From a virus (lineage: Duplodnaviria > Heunggongvirae > Uroviricota > Caudoviricetes): a DNA stretch of 22,563 bases. A model generated the notes under the pieces. The model did not search any database and was not told the DNA's origin. It saw nothing but the letters and a program-made list of their open reading frames with translations. A program made the position numbers and the translations under genes. Each line of letters starts with the position of its first letter. Position 1 is the stretch's first letter. The stretch lies in the IMG/VR virus record IMGVR_UViG_2563366825_000028. One strand, 5' to 3'. Positions 2,927 to 13,689 of this stretch are shown piece after piece.

Positions 2927-4588
2927 TTATATGAAAAAAACCGCATATTCTTTCTTTTTCGGTTCCGGGTTAAGGGACATCAGGGAGACCGCATTGAACA
3001 GCGCCATCAGCGGGTCAATTTTTCCCCGTCCACTGGCCTGTTTGGTGATAAGAATGGCGTTACCTTTAGGCTCCACCCGGGCATTGCCGACACACCAGGC
3101 CATCAGGGGCTGGTCACCATGCACCAGCACCCCTTCAGCCAGTTTGCGCTCGGTGGTTTTAATGGCCCCGCCCAGTTTCCAGCCCTGGCTTATCCCCACC
3201 ACAATTCCGTCGGGGATCCCGGCTTCCGCCAGTGAATCCAGAATCTGCCCCACCCCTGACGGGTCAATACCGATATGGTCCAGTAACTCAGCCTCATGAA
3301 TGCGACGCACATATTCCGCCACTTCCGCCGTGTCATCCCCGATACGCCGGACAATGGTCATATCTCCACAGGCAACAAGATCCTGAAACCGGGACGCCTC
3401 GCTCTTCCGTCGGACCACCGCGGTTTCATGCGCCCAGGCATGGCCCCAGCCCAGCCATTCGCGGGTCTCCCGGTCACGCCCAATCACATACATCCCCAGC
3501 AGATCATCCAGCCCTCCGCCGTCAATCCCCACCGTCACCACATCAGCACGACGCAGGATATCGTCCAGGCTGATACAACGGCCCTGCTCTTCCCAGAAAT
3601 CAGCCCCCGCCCAGCGGTCAGAGCGCAGGGCAAGACCAATTTCCACATTGGCGTGTTTTGACATGAACCCCCGGAATGTCTCTTCACCGGCTTCCCGGGC
3701 TTTACGGTACTCCCGGTACAGAAAGGCCTCATCCACTGAATAGCCGAGATTCGGATTGACCATGGCGAGGTTTTCCATCAGCAGGTGAGCCCCGCTTTCC
3801 ACCATTTCAGGAGGGTGTTCAAATATCACCGGCAGAAAGTGCGGATCATGAATTTTGCCGTCGCGCACATCCCGGGCGTACTGCAGTTTCTGTCTGAACA
3901 CCCCGGCGGGCGGTTCATTCGACTGGGTGGTCGTATACACCACAAACCCTTCCGGGCGGGAGGCAAGGCCGCCGATGGCTTCACGTAACATGTCCTCCGC
4001 CTTGTACTGCTTGCCAAACAGCCACAACTCATCAATCAGCGTACCCACGGACTTGATACCGGACACCGTATTCGGATCGGCTGCCACCACCTTCAGGGTG
4101 GTGTCTGTCACCCTGTGGGTGATGGTCCGGATATGGGTCTGTACCTGGCAGAGGTCATCCAGATCATCGTCACGTCGTACCATATCCCGGGCAGGGTTGA
4201 AGGCGTTGGCCGCCACCTCCACAGTCGGGGCCAGAATCGTGTAACCCGCCGCCTGCCGCCAGTTCAGTAACAGCGCCGTCATCATGATCCCCGCGGCCAG
4301 CGTGGACTTCGAGTTTTTCTTGGGGATAAGGATAAAAACTTCCTTGATATGGCGTACACCGGTCTGCGCATCGTAGGAGCCAAACAGGGCCGCCACCAGG
4401 TCAAACACCCACGGTGCACAGGACTCCCCGAACGTAGGGCTACCAGGTGCATCCACAATCCGCAGTTGTTTAAAAATCGCCAGGGCATGTGCGGCCTCGT
4501 CCGGATAAATCGGATCCGGAATAATCGACAGCCCCTTTTTCAGGCGCTCAGCCCAGTCCGGGCAGGCTGTGCTCCATACAGGTATCAT
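2927..4588 (-). CDS. Terminase large subunit (Terminase_1-type ATPase/nuclease)
   Basis: 553 aa. Walker-A-like segment ILIPKKNSKSTLAAGIMMTALLL and C-terminal nuclease-domain motifs (VTVGIDGGG.DD, KIDPLMALFNAVSLM). The ATG at 4588 overlaps the terS stop (ATGA coupling). Confidence 0.9.
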   Translation of the reverse strand: MIPVWSTACPDWAERLKKGLSIIPDPIYPDEAAHALAIFKQLRIVDAPGSPTFGESCAPWVFDLVAALFGSYDAQTGVRHIKEVFILIPKKNSKSTLAAGIMMTALLLNWRQAAGYTILAPTVEVAANAFNPARDMVRRDDDLDDLCQVQTHIRTITHRVTDTTLKVVAADPNTVSGIKSVGTLIDELWLFGKQYKAEDMLREAIGGLASRPEGFVVYTTTQSNEPPAGVFRQKLQYARDVRDGKIHDPHFLPVIFEHPPEMVESGAHLLMENLAMVNPNLGYSVDEAFLYREYRKAREAGEETFRGFMSKHANVEIGLALRSDRWAGADFWEEQGRCISLDDILRRADVVTVGIDGGGLDDLLGMYVIGRDRETREWLGWGHAWAHETAVVRRKSEASRFQDLVACGDMTIVRRIGDDTAEVAEYVRRIHEAELLDHIGIDPSGVGQILDSLAEAGIPDGIVVGISQGWKLGGAIKTTERKLAEGVLVHGDQPLMAWCVGNARVEPKGNAILITKQASGRGKIDPLMALFNAVSLMSLNPEPKKKEYAVFFI

Positions 4589-6176: not shown

Positions 6177-6509
6177 TCAGGGTGCAGAAGGACTAAAGAT
6201 AAACGTTTTCTTCACGCCTTTACACGGCCTGTCCTTCTCAAATCGCCATTTTGCCATCGCCTTTACAACCTGCTCATCAAACAAATGGTGCGGCTCTGAA
6301 CGGATAAACTCAATTCGGGTGACAGTACCATCAGCACCAATATCAAACTTCACATCAACCCGTCCCTTTATATAATTTGCCGCTGCATAGGCCGGATATT
6401 GTGGTAATGCCTTCACCAACTGTCGGGGCATATCTGTTTTATGTTGCGTACAGCCCATAACCAGAGAAGACAACAAAATAATTAACGGAAGATTTCTTTT
6501 CATTTTCAT
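6177..6509 (-). CDS. Lipoprotein with TonB C-terminal-like domain (prophage accessory gene)
   Basis: Signal peptide plus lipobox (MKMKRNLPLIILLSSLVMGC), then PQYPAYAAANYIKGRVDVKFDIGADGTVTRIEFIRSEPHHLFDEQVVKAMAKWRFE, which fits the TonB_C signature (YP..A...G.V.V.F.....G.V.......S.....FD.....A...WRF). Start taken at ATG 6509; the track uses GTG 6518. Confidence 0.75.
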   Translation of the reverse strand: MKMKRNLPLIILLSSLVMGCTQHKTDMPRQLVKALPQYPAYAAANYIKGRVDVKFDIGADGTVTRIEFIRSEPHHLFDEQVVKAMAKWRFEKDRPCKGVKKTFIFSPSAP

Positions 6510-6523
6510 TCCCGGCACAGATA

Positions 6524-8098: not shown

Positions 8099-8425
8099 AT
8101 GACTAAAAATACTCGTTTTTCCCCCGAAGTCCGTCAGCGGGCGATTCGTATGGTTCTGGAAAGTCAGGATGAATATGACTCACAGTGGGCGGCAATTTGT
8201 TCCATTGCCCCAAAGATTGGCTGTACGCCGGAGACTCTGCGTGTCTGGGTTCGCCAGCATGAGCGGGATACCGGGGGCGGTGATGGTGGGCTCACCAGCG
8301 CTGAACGTCAGCGTCTGAAAGAGCTGGAACGTGAAAATCGTGAACTGCGCCGCAGTAACGATATCCTTCGCCAGGCTTCCGCTTATTTTGCGAAGGCGGA
8401 GTTCGACCGCCTCTGGAAAAAATGA
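8099..8425 (+). CDS. IS3-family transposase OrfA (HTH / leucine-zipper part)
   Basis: 108 aa, [65 protein letters not shown], matching IS629/IS1203 OrfA as I recall it. The A6 run 8417-8422 at the orfA/orfB overlap is a possible -1 frameshift slippery site. Confidence 0.9.
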
Positions 8426-9312
8426 TGCCACTGCTGGATAAGCTGCGTGAGCAGTACGGGGTCGGACCGGTATGCAGCGAACTGCATATTGCCCCGTCAA
8501 CGTATTACCATTGTCAGCAACAGCGACATCATCCGGATAAACGCAGTGCCCGTGCGCAGCACGATGACTGGCTGAAGAGAGAGATACAGCGCGTATACGA
8601 TGAAAATCATCAGGTGTACGGTGTGCGTAAAGTCTGGCGTCAGTTGTTACGGGAAGGAATCAGGGTGGCCAGATGTACAGTGGCGCGCCTCATGGCGGTT
8701 ATGGGACTTGCCGGTGTTCTCCGGGGTAAAAAGGTCCGCACTACCGTCAGCCGGAAAACCGTTGCCACAGGTGACCGCGTAAACCGTCAGTTCGTGGCAG
8801 AACGTCCTGACCAGCTGTGGGTGGCTGATTTTACTTACGTCAGCACATGGCAGGGCTTCGTCTATGTGGCGTTTATCATTGATGTGTTTGCCGGATACAT
8901 CGTGGGGTGGCGGGTCTCATCGTCTATGGAAACGACATTCGTGCTGGATGCGCTGGAGCAGGCGTTGTGGGCCCGTCGTCCGTCTGGCACCATCCATCAC
9001 AGCGATAAAGGCTCTCAGTATGTGTCACTGGCCTATACGGAGCGACTAAAAGAAGTCGGATTACTGGCATCAACAGGGAGTACAGGCGACTCGTATGACA
9101 ACGCGATGGCTGAGAGCATCAATGGTCTTTACAAAGCGGAGGTAATACACCGTAAGAGCTGGAAAAACCGTGCAGAAGTGGAACTGGCCACACTAACGTG
9201 GGTGGACTGGTATAACAATCGACGATTGCTGGGAAGGCTGGGCCATACTCCTCCGGCAGAAGCAGAAAAAGCTTATTATGCTTCCATCGGAAACAATGAT
9301 CTGGCAGCCTGA
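8422..9312 (+). CDS. IS3-family transposase OrfB (DDE integrase-core catalytic domain)
   Basis: 296 aa with rve-type motifs ([59 protein letters not shown]). The ATG overlaps the orfA stop (ATGA). Confidence 0.9.
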
Positions 9313-9354
9313 GTTCACAGATAAAACACTCTCCAGGAAACCCGGGGCGGTTCA

Positions 9355-9509
9355 ATAAATCTCCAGTCCGTTCTGCTTATCTTCGATTCATGACAGCCAA
9401 TCATCTTTGCCAGACCGCGCTGGGTAAGCGTTGACAGGTTGATAAGTAAATCTGTTTCTGCGCGATCAACGTCGCGCTGTGATAGTTTGCTGTAACTTGT
9501 TTGTTCCAT
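9355..9509 (-). pseudogene. cII: cII-like transcriptional activator gene, truncated at its 3' end by the IS
   Basis: The first 52 codons (MEQTSYSKLSQRDVDRAETDLLINLSTLTQRGLAKMIGCHESKISRTDWRFI) run into the IS right end. The HTH segment with ...ESKISRTDWRFI parallels lambda CII ...KSQISRWKRDWIP (from memory). The rest of the track ORF 9315..9509 is read-through into IS sequence. Confidence 0.7.
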
Positions 9510-9594
9510 TTCTTAAGATTTCCAATAGTGAATAGTTAGTTGAAAGGTATGCGTGGAAACGCATATGGCCTTAGTTGGTCAGATATCTTGGGAC

Positions 9595-9640
9595 TCGCTT
9601 TTCAGCGACGTAGGACGAATGTCCGTTGTTACAAAGAGCG
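9595..9640 (-). promoter_or_regulatory. nutR-like N-utilisation site (boxA + boxB), between cro and cII
   Basis: Read on the minus strand: boxA CGCTCTTTGTAACAA (9640..9626), a 17-nt spacer, then boxB hairpin UCGCU-GAAA-AGCGA (9608..9595). The boxB core GCUGAAAAGC is shared with the nutL candidate. Confidence 0.5.
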
Positions 9641-9648
9641 GGTACTGC

Positions 9649-9867
9649 TTAGGCGGCTTTGTTACTGGATGGAGGGAAAACATCATCCAAAGAACATTGG
9701 CACCCTAACTTCCTGAGGCCTTCTACGATCTTTCGGCAATCGTTAAGTCTAGGAGTACGGATATTCAGCTCATAGTTGGCGATGCGGGATTGCCCCCAAC
9801 CAATTGCCGAAGCCAGTACAGCTTGCGAAACTCCGATTTTTTTTCGCTGCTGGGCAATTTTGTTCAT
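9649..9867 (-). CDS. cro: Cro-like repressor (XRE-family HTH), divergent from cI
   Basis: 72 aa from ATG 9867 (GGGAGA RBS), MNKIAQQRKKIGVSQAVLASAIGWGQSRIANYE... The track ORF starts at an upstream GTG inside the operator region. Confidence 0.8.
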   Translation of the reverse strand: MNKIAQQRKKIGVSQAVLASAIGWGQSRIANYELNIRTPRLNDCRKIVEGLRKLGCQCSLDDVFPPSSNKAA

Positions 9868-9897
9868 TGCGGTCTCCCTAGTATTAATCACACACCC

Positions 9898-9970
9898 ATT
9901 ACACACAATTTGTGATTAACAGTCAACCTCAATTCGTGTACAGAGTTCAATCACGTTGCGTGTTACATTT
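9898..9970. promoter_or_regulatory. OR region: divergent pR / pRM promoters with CACA-N3-TGTG operators
   Basis: pR on the minus strand: -35 TTGACT (plus 9926..9921), 17-bp spacer, -10 TGTAAT (plus 9903..9898), with operator CACAATTTGTG (9904-9914) inside the spacer. A second operator CACGTTGCGTG (9952-9962) sits 14 bp from the cI ATG. Candidate pRM -10 is TACATT (9964-9969), which would give a leaderless or near-leaderless cI mRNA. Confidence 0.65.
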
Positions 9971-9975
9971 AAAGG

Positions 9976-10623
9976 ATGAAAACGATGCATGAAATTATCG
10001 GGGAAAGGATCAAGTCCCTTAGAGAAGCTAAAGGACTTAGCCAGGCTCAATTGGCCAAGCTTTGCGGCTGGGCTGCGCCTTCACGCCTGGGGAACTACGA
10101 GTTAGGAACAAGAAAGGTTAGCGCGGATGACGCGCTGGTTCTTGGGGCGGCACTCGGCGTATCTCCGGCAAAAATAATGTTTGGCGAGGATTCAGACGCT
10201 GTATTTCGCCAATATGAGTACCCGTTATTTTCTTCAGTGCAGGCCGGGCCGTTTTCGGAGGTTGGAAGCTACACAGCAAGCGATGCAAAGGCATGGGTCC
10301 CAACGACCACAAAAGCCAGCGAAAAAGCTTTCTGGCTTGAGGTGAAAGGCCATTCTATGACTGCGCCACAGGGCGTAAGGCCGAGTTTTCCTGAGGGTAT
10401 GCTGATACTCGTTGATCCGGCCGAGCCGGTAGAGTCTGGGGATTTCTGCGTGGCTTCTGCAAATGGTGATTCAGAGGCAACGTTCAAGAAGTATGAGAAG
10501 GATGCAGGGGTTAGTTACTTGGTTCCATTGAATCCGGCATACAGAACCCTGGACTGCGATCACACATGCCGCATCATAGGCAAGGTAGTTAAGGCTCAGT
10601 GGCCTGAAGAGACGTTTGGATGA
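9976..10623 (+). CDS. cI: CI-like prophage repressor (HTH domain + LexA-like S24 autopeptidase domain)
   Basis: 215 aa with an N-terminal HTH ([24 protein letters not shown]). The C-terminal domain is very like lambda CI: cleavage-site region [10 protein letters not shown], catalytic Ser in [21 protein letters not shown], and the end ...[17 protein letters not shown] 9985 is an alternative start. Confidence 0.9.
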
Positions 10624-10673
10624 TGGATGGTCGCAGAGATGCTCGTAGAGCATACAGCGATGCAGGAGAATTT

Positions 10674-11108
10674 ATGGCACTTAATTTAGAAAGAATATCT
10701 TTTATAACCCCATTTGATAGCAGCGAAGAACCCAACCAACCGACGCTTAATTTTACATGCAATGAATTTCCTGCGCGGCTATCGATTGATTTCAGGGTTG
10801 GTATGATCGGGTTGAAACCAAATTCAAGATATAATTTGGGTATTATGGTAATCCCCGCGCACCTAATTATAAAAAAAGGTGAGGAAATTCAATTCCCTGA
10901 CGGCTCTTCGGAATCAGTTTCACTTTTCATCGATACGAAAGATAGCCATTTTGAAACAGGGGTTGGCGGACAGGTAATAGTAACATTGAAAGAAATTAGG
11001 GTCCCAGCTAAAGGGCTGTATAGTGTTATAGGGATATTGCAAGATAATGAAGACCCTAAAAATGAACTTCATAAAAATGAATCATTTTTCACCGTAGAGC
11101 TATTATGA
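10674..11108 (+). CDS. Hypothetical soluble protein A (144 aa) of the cI-linked cassette
   Basis: ATG 10674 with AGGAG 5 nt upstream, MALNLERISFITPFDSSEEPNQPTLNFTCNEFPARLSIDFRVGMIGLKPNSRY... Sequence becomes AT-rich from about 10670. No family recognised. Its stop overlaps the start of B (ATGA at 11105-11108). The track ORF begins at 10620, overlapping the cI stop. Confidence 0.7.
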   Translation: MALNLERISFITPFDSSEEPNQPTLNFTCNEFPARLSIDFRVGMIGLKPNSRYNLGIMVIPAHLIIKKGEEIQFPDGSSESVSLFIDTKDSHFETGVGGQVIVTLKEIRVPAKGLYSVIGILQDNEDPKNELHKNESFFTVELL

Positions 11109-11725
11109 GTGACGACAGTAATTTAAATAATCATGGAAAGCAAGACACCAACATATCTGAAAGCCGGAGGTTGAAGGTTGTTGGCGGTTCCGATTTTGAG
11201 GCTGAATTTGATAATTCTCCCACCAAGGTGCAAAATAATTACATAAAACCGCCACAAACGGAGGAAGAAGTGGGAACGATCAGCAGAGAGGAACTTGATG
11301 CTCGCTTAGCTGCTAATAAAGCAGAGATGGAGTCTATTGCTTCTTCCATTAGGACTGACATGGCTCTATCTCGTGAAAGCGTTAATGTCCAATTTGCATC
11401 ACTTAATGCAGCCATAAGCTCTCTATCGTCCAAGATCGATGGAAAGATGGATAGCGCTGCTGGCGATATAAAAGCAATTAATGGGAGATTCGAAGGAATT
11501 CAAGGACAAATAACAGGGGTTAATACCGCAATTAGTGGTGTTCAGTCGGGTATTTCTATACGATTAGCCATTTTTAGTGTCATTATCGCTGTAATAGTTG
11601 CGATTCCCGGGCTGGTATCAGCTTTAAAGTCAGACCACGCACCTTTGCAACAGCCTTCCACTTTGCAAGCGCCGCCACAAAATACCCAGCCAACAGACAA
11701 CAAAAAAATCACTCCCCAGCATTAA
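11105..11725 (+). CDS. Hypothetical tail-anchored coiled-coil membrane protein B (206 aa) of the cI-linked cassette
   Basis: Polar N-terminus, then a long Ala/Ser/Gly/Ile-rich repetitive segment (ASLNAAISSLSSKIDGKMDSAAGDIKAINGRFEGIQGQITGVNTAISGVQSG), one hydrophobic helix ISIRLAIFSVIIAVIVAIPGLVSAL, and a Pro/Gln-rich tail. Followed directly by an intrinsic terminator. Confidence 0.75.
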   Translation: MSDDSNLNNHGKQDTNISESRRLKVVGGSDFEAEFDNSPTKVQNNYIKPPQTEEEVGTISREELDARLAANKAEMESIASSIRTDMALSRESVNVQFASLNAAISSLSSKIDGKMDSAAGDIKAINGRFEGIQGQITGVNTAISGVQSGISIRLAIFSVIIAVIVAIPGLVSALKSDHAPLQQPSTLQAPPQNTQPTDNKKITPQH

Positions 11726-11733
11726 CGCATTAA

Positions 11734-11757
11734 CCCGGCCTCAGCGCCGGGTTTTTT
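11734..11757 (+). terminator. Rho-independent terminator closing the cI-A-B transcription unit
   Basis: CCCGGC (11734-11739), loop CTCAGC, GCCGGG (11746-11751), then TTTTTT (11752-11757). Confidence 0.75.
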
Positions 11758-11994
11758 GTTGCCTGCACATAACTATCAGGACAGCACCTGCCAGCCAGCC
11801 CAAGCCTCTGATTAAATTACTATAATTCTTAATACAACTCCCATATCCCGCCATCTCGTCACCACCTACTTCGCTCGTTTTTCGAACTTTTCAGCACACC
11901 ATCCTGCTGTTTCCCCCGCCTTAAGTAAGCAAACCCATCGCGGGGAAAACTATTTACACAAAAAAATCATACACATAACGTGTCACACCCTTAT

Positions 11995-12042
11995 TTTACA
12001 CATTTTGTGATTGACCATTAAATCACAATATGTGACTATTAT
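11995..12042 (+). promoter_or_regulatory. OL / pL region: CACA-N3-TGTG operators overlapping the early-left promoter
   Basis: Operators CACATTTTGTG (11999-12009) and TCACAATATGTGA (12023-12035). TTGACC (12011-12016) followed by an operator in the spacer mirrors the pR layout (TTGACT + operator + TGTAAT); -10 candidates are GACTAT and TATTAT (12034-12042). An alternative pair is -35 TTTACA (11995-12000) with -10 TTAAAT (12018-12023). Confidence 0.55.
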
Positions 12043-12086
12043 TTCCATCAGCAGGACGCTGGTAGCCAAACGGAAAAGATTGGCAG

Positions 12087-12132
12087 GCTCTTTAAACAAC
12101 GTCGAACACTCGACTACGTGGCTGAAAAGCCA
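12087..12132 (+). promoter_or_regulatory. nutL-like site (boxA + boxB) upstream of N
   Basis: boxA GCTCTTTAAACAA (12087-12099) is close to the rrn/lambda boxA consensus. A 19-nt spacer precedes the boxB hairpin UGGCU-GAAA-AGCCA (12119-12132). Its boxB core and boxA-boxB spacing match the nutR candidate. Confidence 0.6.
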
Positions 12133-12230
12133 GATCACCCAACCACATAAGCTGTGGGATGCAATGCCGAAGCAACCGTCTCAGGAGGAGCTTCGAGATT
12201 GCATCGCCAAAGTTTATTCGGGAGGAATCT

Positions 12231-12503
12231 ATGTCCAGAAAAACAGAATTTAAAGGCACCGCAGCTTCTCGCCGTAGAGCTCGTCGCGCAAACCTGCAAA
12301 GTCAGGAGTCGATTAGCTCCGACAAGCTACACAGGCCAACCCCTTCACGAGTGGTCTTGCAATGCAAGCGCAAACCAGCAATGAGAGCAGAAGTTATAAC
12401 TCTGACAACGTTGACCAGAAAATATGAAGGTTCAACTTGTCTTCCAAACGTAGCCATTTACGCTGCAGGCTACCGTAAATCCAAACAACTGACAGCAAGA
12501 TGA
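12231..12503 (+). CDS. N: N-type transcription antiterminator (P22 gp24 / phage 21 N-like)
   Basis: 90 aa from ATG 12231 (GGAGG 5 nt upstream). Arginine-rich motif GTAASRRRARRANLQ near the N-terminus; C-terminus LPNVAIYAAGYRKSKQLTAR matches the P22 gp24 end LPGVALYAAGHRKSKQITAR (from memory). An in-frame upstream ATG at 12159 has a poor RBS. Confidence 0.8.
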   Translation: MSRKTEFKGTAASRRRARRANLQSQESISSDKLHRPTPSRVVLQCKRKPAMRAEVITLTTLTRKYEGSTCLPNVAIYAAGYRKSKQLTAR

Positions 12504-12564
12504 CTTGTGTTGGTCGCCAGAAAATGAAATTAGGCAGCAAACCACTTATTTGAGAGGAATTAAT

Positions 12565-13188
12565 ATGTCATCAATCCGCTTAACTACGAGAATGAAAGAG
12601 GAAATCGCTCGTAACGCTTTAATTAAGTCCGGGGTGTTCACTGAACTTGAAGAAGTAACAAAGTTAAAGAACCAGCTTGCACTTGACGCCAGAGTTATTG
12701 CGTTTGGCGGGAAAAAGAAAACCGAAGAAGTGGACCAGCTGGCATCAAAGTTAATGGCTGCAAGTGAGGAACTTCAAAAGCTGGGATGTTCATTTTACTC
12801 ATGCGATGTCAGTTCATGTTCGATTTATCTGACTGTATCTGGAAGAAGGGTTGGCTGGCATTCATACGGAAAAGACGGCAACGGTGAAGATATATTGCTC
12901 CCTACCCCCGACAAAGATAAATGCATGTTTGACGCAGAACACAAAATAACAAAAAGGTTTGATGAAATCTGCGCATTGCAACAAAAACTTGAAGCCAGGA
13001 AAAAGGATATAGAATCAAACGTATGGGCTGCTTTGAACTCAGTCACAACAGTTAAGCGACTTATTGAAGTTTGGCCTGAAAGCAAAGAGTTGCTACCAAA
13101 AGAAGCAGATAAAGCAAGTGCAGCACTTCCTGCTTTACGGGTAGAAGATTTGAATAAGATGATTGGACTTCCTTCCGAGGCCGCATAA
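12565..13188 (+). CDS. Hypothetical protein (207 aa), AT-rich accessory gene in the N-cIII interval
   Basis: ATG 12565 with GAGAGGAA RBS. No TM segments and no family recognised. Occupies the position where lambda carries ral/sieB-type accessory genes. Confidence 0.7.
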   Translation: MSSIRLTTRMKEEIARNALIKSGVFTELEEVTKLKNQLALDARVIAFGGKKKTEEVDQLASKLMAASEELQKLGCSFYSCDVSSCSIYLTVSGRRVGWHSYGKDGNGEDILLPTPDKDKCMFDAEHKITKRFDEICALQQKLEARKKDIESNVWAALNSVTTVKRLIEVWPESKELLPKEADKASAALPALRVEDLNKMIGLPSEAA

Positions 13189-13203
13189 TCGGCCTTTATT
13201 TTT
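13179..13203 (+). terminator. Weak candidate intrinsic terminator at the end of the 12565-13188 gene
   Basis: GGCCG (13179-13183), loop CATAAT containing the stop codon, CGGCC (13190-13194), then TTTATTTTT. Confidence 0.4.
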
Positions 13204-13322
13204 GGCATAAACAACAGAATAAACACTGCACTGTGTATTCATTCCAACGAGTGAATACACGGAGCAATGTCGCTCGTAACTAAACAGGAGCCGACTTGTT
13301 CTGATTATTGGAAATCTTCTTT

Positions 13323-13346
13323 GCCCTCCAATGTGAGGGCTTTTTT
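13323..13346 (+). terminator. Rho-independent terminator (tL-like) upstream of cIII
   Basis: GCCCTC (13323-13328), loop CAATGT, GAGGGC (13335-13340), then TTTTTT (13341-13346). Confidence 0.7.
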
Positions 13347-13412
13347 ATATGCATACCAATAACGCTTCACTAGAGGCGTTTTCGTTATGTGTAAATAAAT
13401 AAGGAGCACACC

Positions 13413-13553
13413 ATGCAATATGCCATTGCAGGGTGGCCTGTTGCTGGCTGCCCTTCCGAATCTTTACTTGAACGAATCACCCGTAAATTACGTGACGGAT
13501 GGAAACGCCTTATCGACATACTTAATCAGCCAGGAGTTCCCAAAAATGGATAA
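13413..13553 (+). CDS. cIII: CIII-like FtsH (HflB) protease inhibitor (46 aa)
   Basis: AAGGAG RBS 6 nt upstream. [46 protein letters not shown] is essentially the lambda CIII sequence as I recall it, including the central amphipathic helix. Below the ORF-track size cut-off. Confidence 0.85.
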   Translation: MQYAIAGWPVAGCPSESLLERITRKLRDGWKRLIDILNQPGVPKNG

Positions 13554-13689
13554 AACACTTATGGCTATCCAGACTAAATTCACTATCGCCACTTTTATTG
13601 GTGATGAAAAGATGTTTCGTGAAGCCGTCGACGCTTATAAAAAATGGATATTAATACTGAAACTGAGATCAAGCAAAAGCATTCACTAA
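13546..13689 (+). CDS. kil: Kil-like host cell-division inhibitor (47 aa)
   Basis: ATG overlaps the cIII 3' end. [47 protein letters not shown]; position between cIII and gam and the overlap with the gam 5' region match the lambda kil arrangement (from memory). Confidence 0.7.

Follow-up and report, generated by a model that had tools for sequence, protein, structure and literature searches.

The present analysis deals with two small genes, here called A and B, that lie between the cI repressor gene and the early-left operator region of a stretch of 22,563 nucleotides of viral DNA (Caudoviricetes; IMG/VR record IMGVR_UViG_2563366825_000028), which we refer to as the window. Nucleotide alignments indicate that this cassette is an exact allelic replacement of the rexA-rexB genes of phage lambda. 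Together with the mobility of the cassette, the linkage of its genes and the selection acting on them, its position shows that the two genes make up a genuine and functional unit in the place of rexAB. As for the function of the module, exclusion or abortive infection of superinfecting phages is the role we favor, by analogy, with about an even chance of being the right one.

To define the limits of the cassette, the window, phage HK542 and lambda were aligned at the nucleotide level. The last ~27 nucleotides of cI (CAGTGGCCTGAAGAGACGTTTGGnTGAT) are common to the three sequences, which diverge directly beyond this point and rejoin at a hairpin, AACCCGGCCTCAGCGCCGGGTTTT, located in lambda after rexB. 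The HK542 record (EF120458) labels the hairpin after gene B 'Timm', and annotates pRM and pRE upstream of cI. Downstream of the hairpin HK542 stays lambda-like up to OL, while the window departs right after the T-run. According to this alignment the replacement unit spans ~10596 to ~11757, its joints being the cI 3' end and the terminator. An earlier note on this DNA, made from the letters alone, had placed the two genes in a slot equivalent to that of rexAB, a proposal that proved precise: lambda has the same left joint in the end of cI and the same hairpin. The two lambda-shared joints and the flanking operators put A and B between cI and tImm/OL, co-oriented with cI, and the arrangement cI-A-B-terminator, bracketed by the OR and OL repeats, matches a lambdoid immunity region (Table 1).

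The left joint recurs in other phages. A segment of 38 nucleotides (10605-10642) that includes the stop codon of cI recurs with 100% identity in many 933W-like Shiga toxin (Stx) phage records that are otherwise unmatched to the query, and on this sequence pattern it behaves as a conserved boundary or recombination sequence at the cI 3' end. In 933W-type prophages a DUF3024 gene is found between cI and A; behind it, the cassette is still preceded by a vestige of the end of cI (GAAGAGACGTTTGGATGA). The DUF3024 gene looks like a second accessory gene stacked in the same slot; it encodes a protein of 113 residues (phrog_3467), for example at 3158-3499 of IMG/VR UViG_2698536307_000024 (locus L013), and is present in seven similar loci.

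The coordinates and the translational coupling that had been reported for A and B agree with the list of open reading frames (ORFs), the ATG of B overlapping the stop codon of A (ATGA). The gap between cI and A is 50 nucleotides, and no terminator-like site was found on the coding strand from cI to B (before 11732). The plus strand has a single site of this kind within 9400-12600, the hairpin at 11732-11753, which, with its T-run and a folding free energy of -16.9 kcal/mol (z = -2.5), upheld the intrinsic terminator previously placed after B and upstream of OL/pL. In lambda, rexAB is transcribed together with cI. Given the lack of an intervening terminator-like site, and a hairpin shared with lambda, where rexAB is transcribed in this manner, we strongly infer that A and B are co-transcribed with cI in lysogens. 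The repressor-N interval of lambdoid prophages ranks with the prophage regions that lysogens express most strongly. An in-frame ATG at 10620, over the cI stop codon, gives a form of A of 162 residues that is sometimes called by RefSeq; however, translation probably starts at 10674, since homologues from other genera have 143-144 residues and start at the equivalent of this position. Orthologue comparisons indicate that A and B are real genes under strong purifying selection and not chance ORFs: the proportion of non-synonymous differences (pN) was 0.1-0.25 with synonymous differences (pS) saturated at ~0.8, and the closest orthologue pair gave dN/dS values of 0.18 for A and 0.05 for B.

The AT-richness of the cassette had been taken as a sign of acquired cargo. 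Its G+C content (0.38-0.42) is indeed lower than that of cI and of the RecT/exonuclease region (0.52-0.54), but the pL-proximal genes just 3' of N (12400-13600) are equally AT-rich, so that this character is not unique to the cassette. The acquisition itself was confirmed by other means, as copies lie beside cI genes of the lambda, window and 933W types and beside RacR-type repressors. Cassettes of 99% identity adjoin the lambda cI (in HK542 and HK244), the window-type cI, and the 933W-type cI followed by the DUF3024 gene. Overall, the repressors upstream of the pair comprise lambda cI, the window-type cI of 215 residues, 933W-type cI, other S24 repressors and those of the RacR/Phage_CI_repr type, in hosts that include Escherichia, Citrobacter, Pectobacterium, Yersinia and Salmonella; downstream of these repressor-linked pairs lies N or the kil, recE and recT genes. 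Thus, the mapping of homologue neighborhoods that the earlier note had called for shows the pair recurring beside repressors across genera. Most pairs are directly 3' of a prophage repressor, and a few occupy other accessory positions, by tail genes or at the prophage end. The same cassette, with its own boundaries, adjoins at least three cI alleles in otherwise different prophages and is therefore a discrete mobile unit: a mobile accessory module, or 'moron', that moves between prophages with different repressors.

In the phage collection the cassette was present in HK542 and HK244 only, both of lambda immunity, with 98.8% nucleotide identity to the window over its whole length. These two phages carry the same genes in the same order (cI-A-B-Timm-OL), and differ from the window in having a lambda-immunity cI instead of one of the VT1-Sakai/mEpX1 type. 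Among 5426 complete genomes of E. coli, 51 carried the cassette, always as one chromosomal copy, and in 49 of them at least 80% of it was covered; the carriers came from human, chicken, bovine, crow and water sources. Proteins identical to A are encoded on at least 1000 public contigs and proteins identical to B on 619, and all sources name them 'hypothetical protein'. The genes themselves were already in GenBank as the hypothetical HK542c105/HK542c104 (EF120458; HK244, EF120457; JQ086373), and a search of the literature by accession, phage name, slot and architecture retrieved no publication on the function of A or B. The discovery of the genes is therefore not new, and the variability of the slot had been recognized; what is new is the precise mapping of the joints, the finding that the two genes always occur as a pair, and the scheme, described below, of an unchanging chassis that takes different partners.

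A and B are obligately linked as well as translationally coupled. In viral contigs, 31 of the 32 A loci have a B-family ORF overlapping the A stop codon, and the remaining locus ends at a contig edge. An exhaustive profile search added only ~15 further relatives of A. The context could be recovered for those of Pantoea, Rahnella, Serratia, Photorhabdus and lambdoid prophages from metagenomes, which are 23-44% identical to the respective search query, and each of these is followed by a gene for a tail-anchored coiled-coil protein of 104-175 residues. An S24 cI lies directly upstream of A in the Pantoea, Rahnella and metagenomic prophages, and N follows in those of Pantoea and the metagenomes. 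The partners from Serratia and Rahnella are recognizable relatives of B, and the others are architectural analogues only: profile comparison detected no homology to B for the partner of 104 residues, and that of Photorhabdus was only marginally similar (probability 13%).

The reverse search was equally informative on the pairing, as divergent B-family genes are preceded by small ORFs other than A. We distinguished three such partners: type 2a (~99 residues), type 2b (~92-97 residues) and type 3 (112-116 residues, with CxxC...CxxC motifs; phrog_4293). No mutual homology was detected among A, 2a and 2b, and type 3 was likewise without similarity to A or to those families with which it was compared. 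Pairs of 2b and B also occur away from repressors, either beside tail genes or in a Mu-like prophage, at its end near DinI, and therefore this pair moves as a unit into other accessory sites; such repressor-remote loci are those at 3485-4495 in L044, L047 and L048 and at 4695-5699 in L007. All the B proteins paired with A share the N-terminal pattern M.DD...L[KR]V[VI]GG[ST].F.A.F.NS, even when their overall identity is 44-52%. In contrast, each of the other partner types (2a, 2b and 3) goes with a B N-terminus of its own, unrelated to the rest, whereas the stalk and transmembrane (TM) helix are alignable throughout. Since this segment changes with the partner family, we infer from the sequences that the small partner docks on the N-terminal segment of B. 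These data led us to a broader proposal, which we regard as possible but doubtful: the B family would be a previously unrecognized modular membrane effector of prophage immunity, consisting of a probably trimeric, tail-anchored chassis with an exchangeable N-terminal dock for at least four unrelated cytoplasmic sensors, of which A is the commonest, the A family acting always through a tail-anchored coiled coil. Under this proposal A and B would represent a widespread defense family of the Enterobacterales, situated in the rexAB slot and absent from current defense catalogues.

Protein B (phrog_5820 in PHROGs, E 3e-76) had been described as tail-anchored, with Ala/Ser/Gly/Ile-rich heptads and one C-terminal TM helix, and the Kyte-Doolittle profile, the heptad table and an AlphaFold2 (AF2) model agree with this description. 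The models depict B as a tail-anchored inner-membrane coiled-coil protein with a disordered N-terminus, a stalk of ~80 residues, a C-terminal TM helix and a dispensable tail. In the AF2 model residues 61-142 form one helix, with a predicted local distance difference test (pLDDT) score of ~90 for residues 61-110. The most conserved block of the protein (Table 1) is at the membrane-distal end of the stalk and is kept in the Serratia and Rahnella relatives. Residues 115-174 follow a strict 3-4 hydrophobic spacing, flanked by Gly, Ala and Ser, that is unbroken at the membrane boundary, and indels among B homologues are of exactly seven residues. Ile and Val at both core positions of a coiled coil favor trimers, as in GCN4-pII; by analogy, B probably forms a parallel oligomer, and this oligomer is probably a trimer. 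Arg153 ahead of the TM helix, an N-terminal domain of 150 residues without a signal peptide, and a cytoplasmic partner point to an N-in, C-out topology, and for the same reasons the N-out orientation was rejected. The close B family has a tail consensus, PIIIQVP, which is degenerate in the window copy, and the tail is absent in the distant partners of A-family genes. A holin or lysis role for B was also discarded, as the gene is inside the immunity operon and the terminator insulates it from pL.

Complete E. coli genomes with a naturally damaged cassette have the lesion in B. Two genomes carry an IS1 insertion at ~codon 128 and two others an internal deletion; all four lesions remove the C-terminal heptads and the TM helix, and A is intact in all of them (examples are L099, NZ_CP063473, 1666-2775, and L100, NZ_CP027459, 1666-1980). 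That only the TM half of B is hit is a weak hint that this protein is costly to its carrier.

Protein A (phrog_5893, E 2e-50) is acidic (net charge -7) and has no hydrophobic segment, and neither A nor B matched a named family of Pfam or NCBIfam above the cut-off, which agrees with the earlier view of A as a soluble protein without recognized motifs. The AF2 model of A, built with nine sequences, shows seven strands arranged as a beta-sandwich; it has moderate confidence (pLDDT 66.8; predicted template modelling score, pTM, 0.61) and superposes on immunoglobulin-like (Ig-like), FN3 or CBM domains. Thus, A is modelled as a small soluble cytoplasmic Ig-like beta-sandwich. Its best viral matches are uncharacterized phage proteins of ~135-165 residues, and a search of profiles from PDB sequences gave nothing meaningful, the matches to estrogen receptor (E >=0.16) being noise. 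The N-terminal half of the A profile also matches tandem repeats in giant proteins (P0041, P0053 and P0055), with 22 such stretches in P0041, a protein of 4194 residues; these are probably Ig-like or cadherin-like adhesin repeats, in line with the fold of A.

The pair invites comparison with lambda RexAB. Both occupy an identical slot with identical joints, both are two-gene units with cI, and both combine one soluble with one inner-membrane protein. The proteins themselves are not related: comparing family profiles with hhalign gave a probability of 0.28% (E 0.22) for A against RexA and of 0.22% for B against RexB, so that homology was ruled out, as the earlier note had suspected. In the membrane partners, a polytopic RexB contrasts with a B protein that has one TM helix, at the C-terminus, and a long coiled coil. 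RexA is described as a DNA-binding protein of 279 residues (PMC11077077), in contrast to the acidic beta-sandwich of 144 residues predicted for A. The logic proposed for RexAB is that of an intracellular sensor plus a membrane effector (PMC8585504), and by analogy it is a plausible template for A and B. BstA, of the Salmonella prophage BTP1, is also encoded directly downstream of a prophage cI and presumably uses the same promoter; unlike A-B, which is a pair with a membrane anchor, it is a single protein that localizes to phage DNA replication sites and has a DNA element for self-immunity, aba. In the mycobacteriophage Butters gp30 is cytoplasmic and gp31 is a membrane protein; they differ from A and B in having unrelated sequences and different hosts. 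Prophage-expressed pairs of this gp30/gp31 type aid in the defense of the host against viral attack (PMC7542560).

Other similarities of B were below threshold. They include Baculo_PEP_C, CCDC90-like proteins, SlaB, MakE/MakA, SmhB, HA2 and reovirus sigma-1, and weak matches of this kind are typically the expected product of coiled-coil and hydrophobic composition. Over the coiled coil and the TM helix B weakly resembles the archaeal S-layer protein SlaB and the trimeric viral coiled coils HA2 and reovirus sigma-1. The layout of SlaB, in which a helical stalk anchored at its C-terminus carries a beta-sandwich 'head', recalls that of A-B, with no homology claimed; in contrast to SlaB-type stalk proteins, the stalk of B is predicted to be cytoplasmic, the head would be a separate polypeptide, and the scores are far below curated cut-offs. 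No SieB-named family was found for B in Pfam at E values up to 1, no PDB match was returned by Foldseek for the B model, and for both proteins we found neither a fold or sequence link to a known defense protein nor confident homology to a non-defense family.

The cI-N interval is a recognized mosaic hotspot and is known to harbor genes for abortive infection, among them rexAB and bstA (PMC8585504), and for this reason we consider exclusion or abortive infection the most likely role of A-B. We propose that the pair would be transcribed with the repressor in lysogens and would act on the cytoplasmic side of the inner membrane. The small partner would dock on the N-terminal segment of B, at the membrane-distal tip of the oligomeric stalk, and would constitute the specificity or sensor part, the conserved stalk and TM helix of B being the common effector. 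A phage cue would then perturb the TM bundle and compromise the membrane, in a Rex-like abortive infection; alternatively, the complex might block genome entry or establishment at the membrane. Since the extracytoplasmic tail is poorly conserved or absent and the cytoplasmic stalk is conserved, we consider the Rex-like mechanism somewhat more likely than a block of DNA entry.

Several observations weigh against this defense role. The argument from position is a prior and not evidence, as non-defense genes could occupy the slot. Neither protein matched any family of PADLOC-DB v2.0.0 (2023) at E values up to 10, a release that does not cover later systems, and the cassette is present in ~1% of the complete E. 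coli genomes. The fold modelled for A is generic and uninformative on its function, and the model of B is one long helix of low-to-modest confidence without a fold match. Moreover, the TM helix of B is purely hydrophobic, with small residues in register, which fits tight packing rather than a water-filled pore. Docking of the partners on B was deduced from a few dozen sequences of one bacterial order. Finally, the window prophage is defective, judging from a cII truncated by an insertion sequence (IS) and from the missing O/P replication, Q and lysis genes, and expression of cI-A-B in it was assumed from the intact cro/cI/OR region.

Among the alternatives, the one that best survives, though we hold it unlikely, is that A and B are a lysogenic-conversion or host-physiology factor unrelated to defense, for instance a membrane scaffold affecting the envelope, stress, colonization or division, which is kept for its benefit to the host. 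A simple architecture, in which a tail-anchored coiled coil is joined by a small binding partner, would suit such a factor, and so would the many niches of the carriers and two proteins that are 'hypothetical' in every database and match no defense model. However, in different genera and with different repressor families the pair keeps its position right after prophage repressors, the exchange of partners on an unchanging effector is a pattern more characteristic of arms-race modules, and the characterized cargo of this interval cited in PMC8585504 (rexAB and bstA) consists of abortive-infection genes.

A narrower form of the defense role is strict superinfection exclusion, in which B would block incoming phage DNA at the inner membrane without killing the cell. 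SieA of phage P22 is reported to block DNA entry in this way. Strict exclusion falls within the defense claim and adds no probability to it, and on its own it seems to us distinctly unlikely. The inner-membrane location predicted for B, its expected presence in the lysogen and the short conserved extracytoplasmic PIIIQVP of the close B family are in its favor. However, this tail is degenerate in the E. coli copy of the window and missing from the distant partners of A, which have the TM helix at the extreme C-terminus; in addition, conservation is centered on the cytoplasmic stalk, and the need for a cytoplasmic partner would be left unexplained.

Still less probable is an addiction module of the toxin-antitoxin type that stabilizes the prophage, with B as a membrane toxin checked by the small protein and defense as a secondary effect. 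The order of the genes, with the small partner encoded first and a stop/start overlap, would be expected of such a module, as would the obligate pairing, the fit between the B N-terminus and the partner type, and natural disruptions that strike B and not A. On the last point, the evidence amounts to two kinds of lesion in four genomes. The weak, sub-threshold similarity of B to subunits of ClyA-type alpha-pore-forming toxins is a further point in favor; however, B was below the family cut-off for SmhB, MakA/E and XaxA, and its scores against these toxins (MakE, 15.4 bits with a cut-off of 360; MakA, 14.3 bits with a cut-off of 320; SmhB, 18 bits and E 0.014; PDB sequences) are far too low as a group (15-19 bits against cut-offs of 320-360) and of the size that coiled coils and hydrophobic composition typically give. 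Nor is there an evident autoregulatory antitoxin that binds DNA, A being a predicted acidic beta-sandwich, and the mechanism would overlap with the abortive-infection form of the defense role.

A modulator of the lysis-lysogeny switch or of induction is very improbable: although RexA and RexB have been reported to assist the transition from lysogeny to the lytic state, and A-B is an apparently exact replacement of rexAB presumably co-expressed with cI, the same cassette adjoins unrelated repressors (S24 cI types and RacR-like proteins without S24), which makes a repressor-specific interaction unlikely, some pairs are remote from any repressor, by tail genes or at prophage ends, and the fold predicted for A (net charge -7) is not a DNA-binding one.

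Returning to exclusion or abortive infection, a clean swap of rexAB by genes without relatives in annotated families makes the cassette a concrete candidate for a new mechanism of this kind, and HK542 and HK244, which have lambda immunity with A-B in the place of rexAB, offer a natural isogenic comparison. If A-B is a defense system, the combination of a constant coiled coil, exchangeable partners and a matched N-terminus would explain how its specificity diversified. If no phage phenotype were found, the pair would still be a widespread lysogen-expressed membrane complex, carried by ~1% of complete E. coli genomes and by many prophages of the Enterobacterales.

Table 1. Features of the immunity region of the window and segments of protein B (positions refer to the window).
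Feature	Position	Strand	Basis or remarks
cro-like helix-turn-helix (HTH) repressor gene	9649-9906	minus	divergent from cI; Pfam HTH_3, E 5e-9
OR, operator-bearing repeat of 33 nucleotides	9888-9920		cro/cI intergenic, pRM expected here; 79% identity with direct repeat 11983-12015
cI repressor gene	9976-10623	+	HTH and Peptidase_S24, LexA-like; Peptidase_S24 E 4e-26; HTH_31/HTH_3
Left recombination joint, final cI codons (QWPEETFG*)	10596-10625	+	common to lambda cI; alignment with lambda and HK542
Shine-Dalgarno sequence of gene A (AGGAG)	10664-10668	+	5 nucleotides upstream of ATG 10674, read from the sequence
Gene A	10674-11108	+	144 residues; phrog_5893
Gene B	11105-11725	+	206 residues; phrog_5820
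B residues 1-58, disordered N-terminal segment	11105-11278	+	pLDDT <50 for most; varies with partner type
B residues 59-92, most conserved block	11279-11380	+	SREELxAxLAANKAE-MESIASSIR-xEMALSRE; invariant or near-invariant columns; pLDDT 86-91
B residues 100-152, Ile/Val heptads flanked by Gly/Ala/Ser	11402-11560	+	heptad table
B residues 153-175, single TM helix in heptad register	11561-11629	+	Kyte-Doolittle 19-residue maximum 2.7 at residue 163; AF2 helix 150-174
B residues 176-206, Pro/Gln-rich tail, presumably periplasmic	11630-11722	+	disordered in model
Intrinsic terminator	11732-11759	+	stem 11732-11753, then T-run
OL operator repeats, pL region	11983-12034		direct copy 11983-12015 and inverted copy 12021-12034 of the OR motif
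N antiterminator gene, opens the early-left operon	12159-12503	+	Pfam N_peptide, E 1e-31

With respect to the prophage around the cassette, the window cI is 95% identical at the DNA level to the cI genes of VT1-Sakai and mEpX1. Downstream of N the gene order is a Nmad5 gene, Gam, RecT, a YqaJ exonuclease and an integrase. The first of these, at 12505-13188, encodes a full-length nucleotide modification associated domain 5 (Pfam E 1.5e-68) and is listed with a TTG start.

On the opposite side, cII (9315-9509, minus strand) abuts an element of the IS3 family (8099-9509 region; orfA 8099-8425, orfB 8422-9312) and ends after ~50 of the 91 profile positions. Past this element all the genes are on the minus strand and encode KilA-N/ORF11CD3, TonB_C, HNH, terminase and protease-capsid proteins. 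The TonB C-terminal domain (Pfam E 1.4e-14) is contained in an ORF of 113 residues at 6177-6518, surrounded by late and accessory genes of this remnant prophage.

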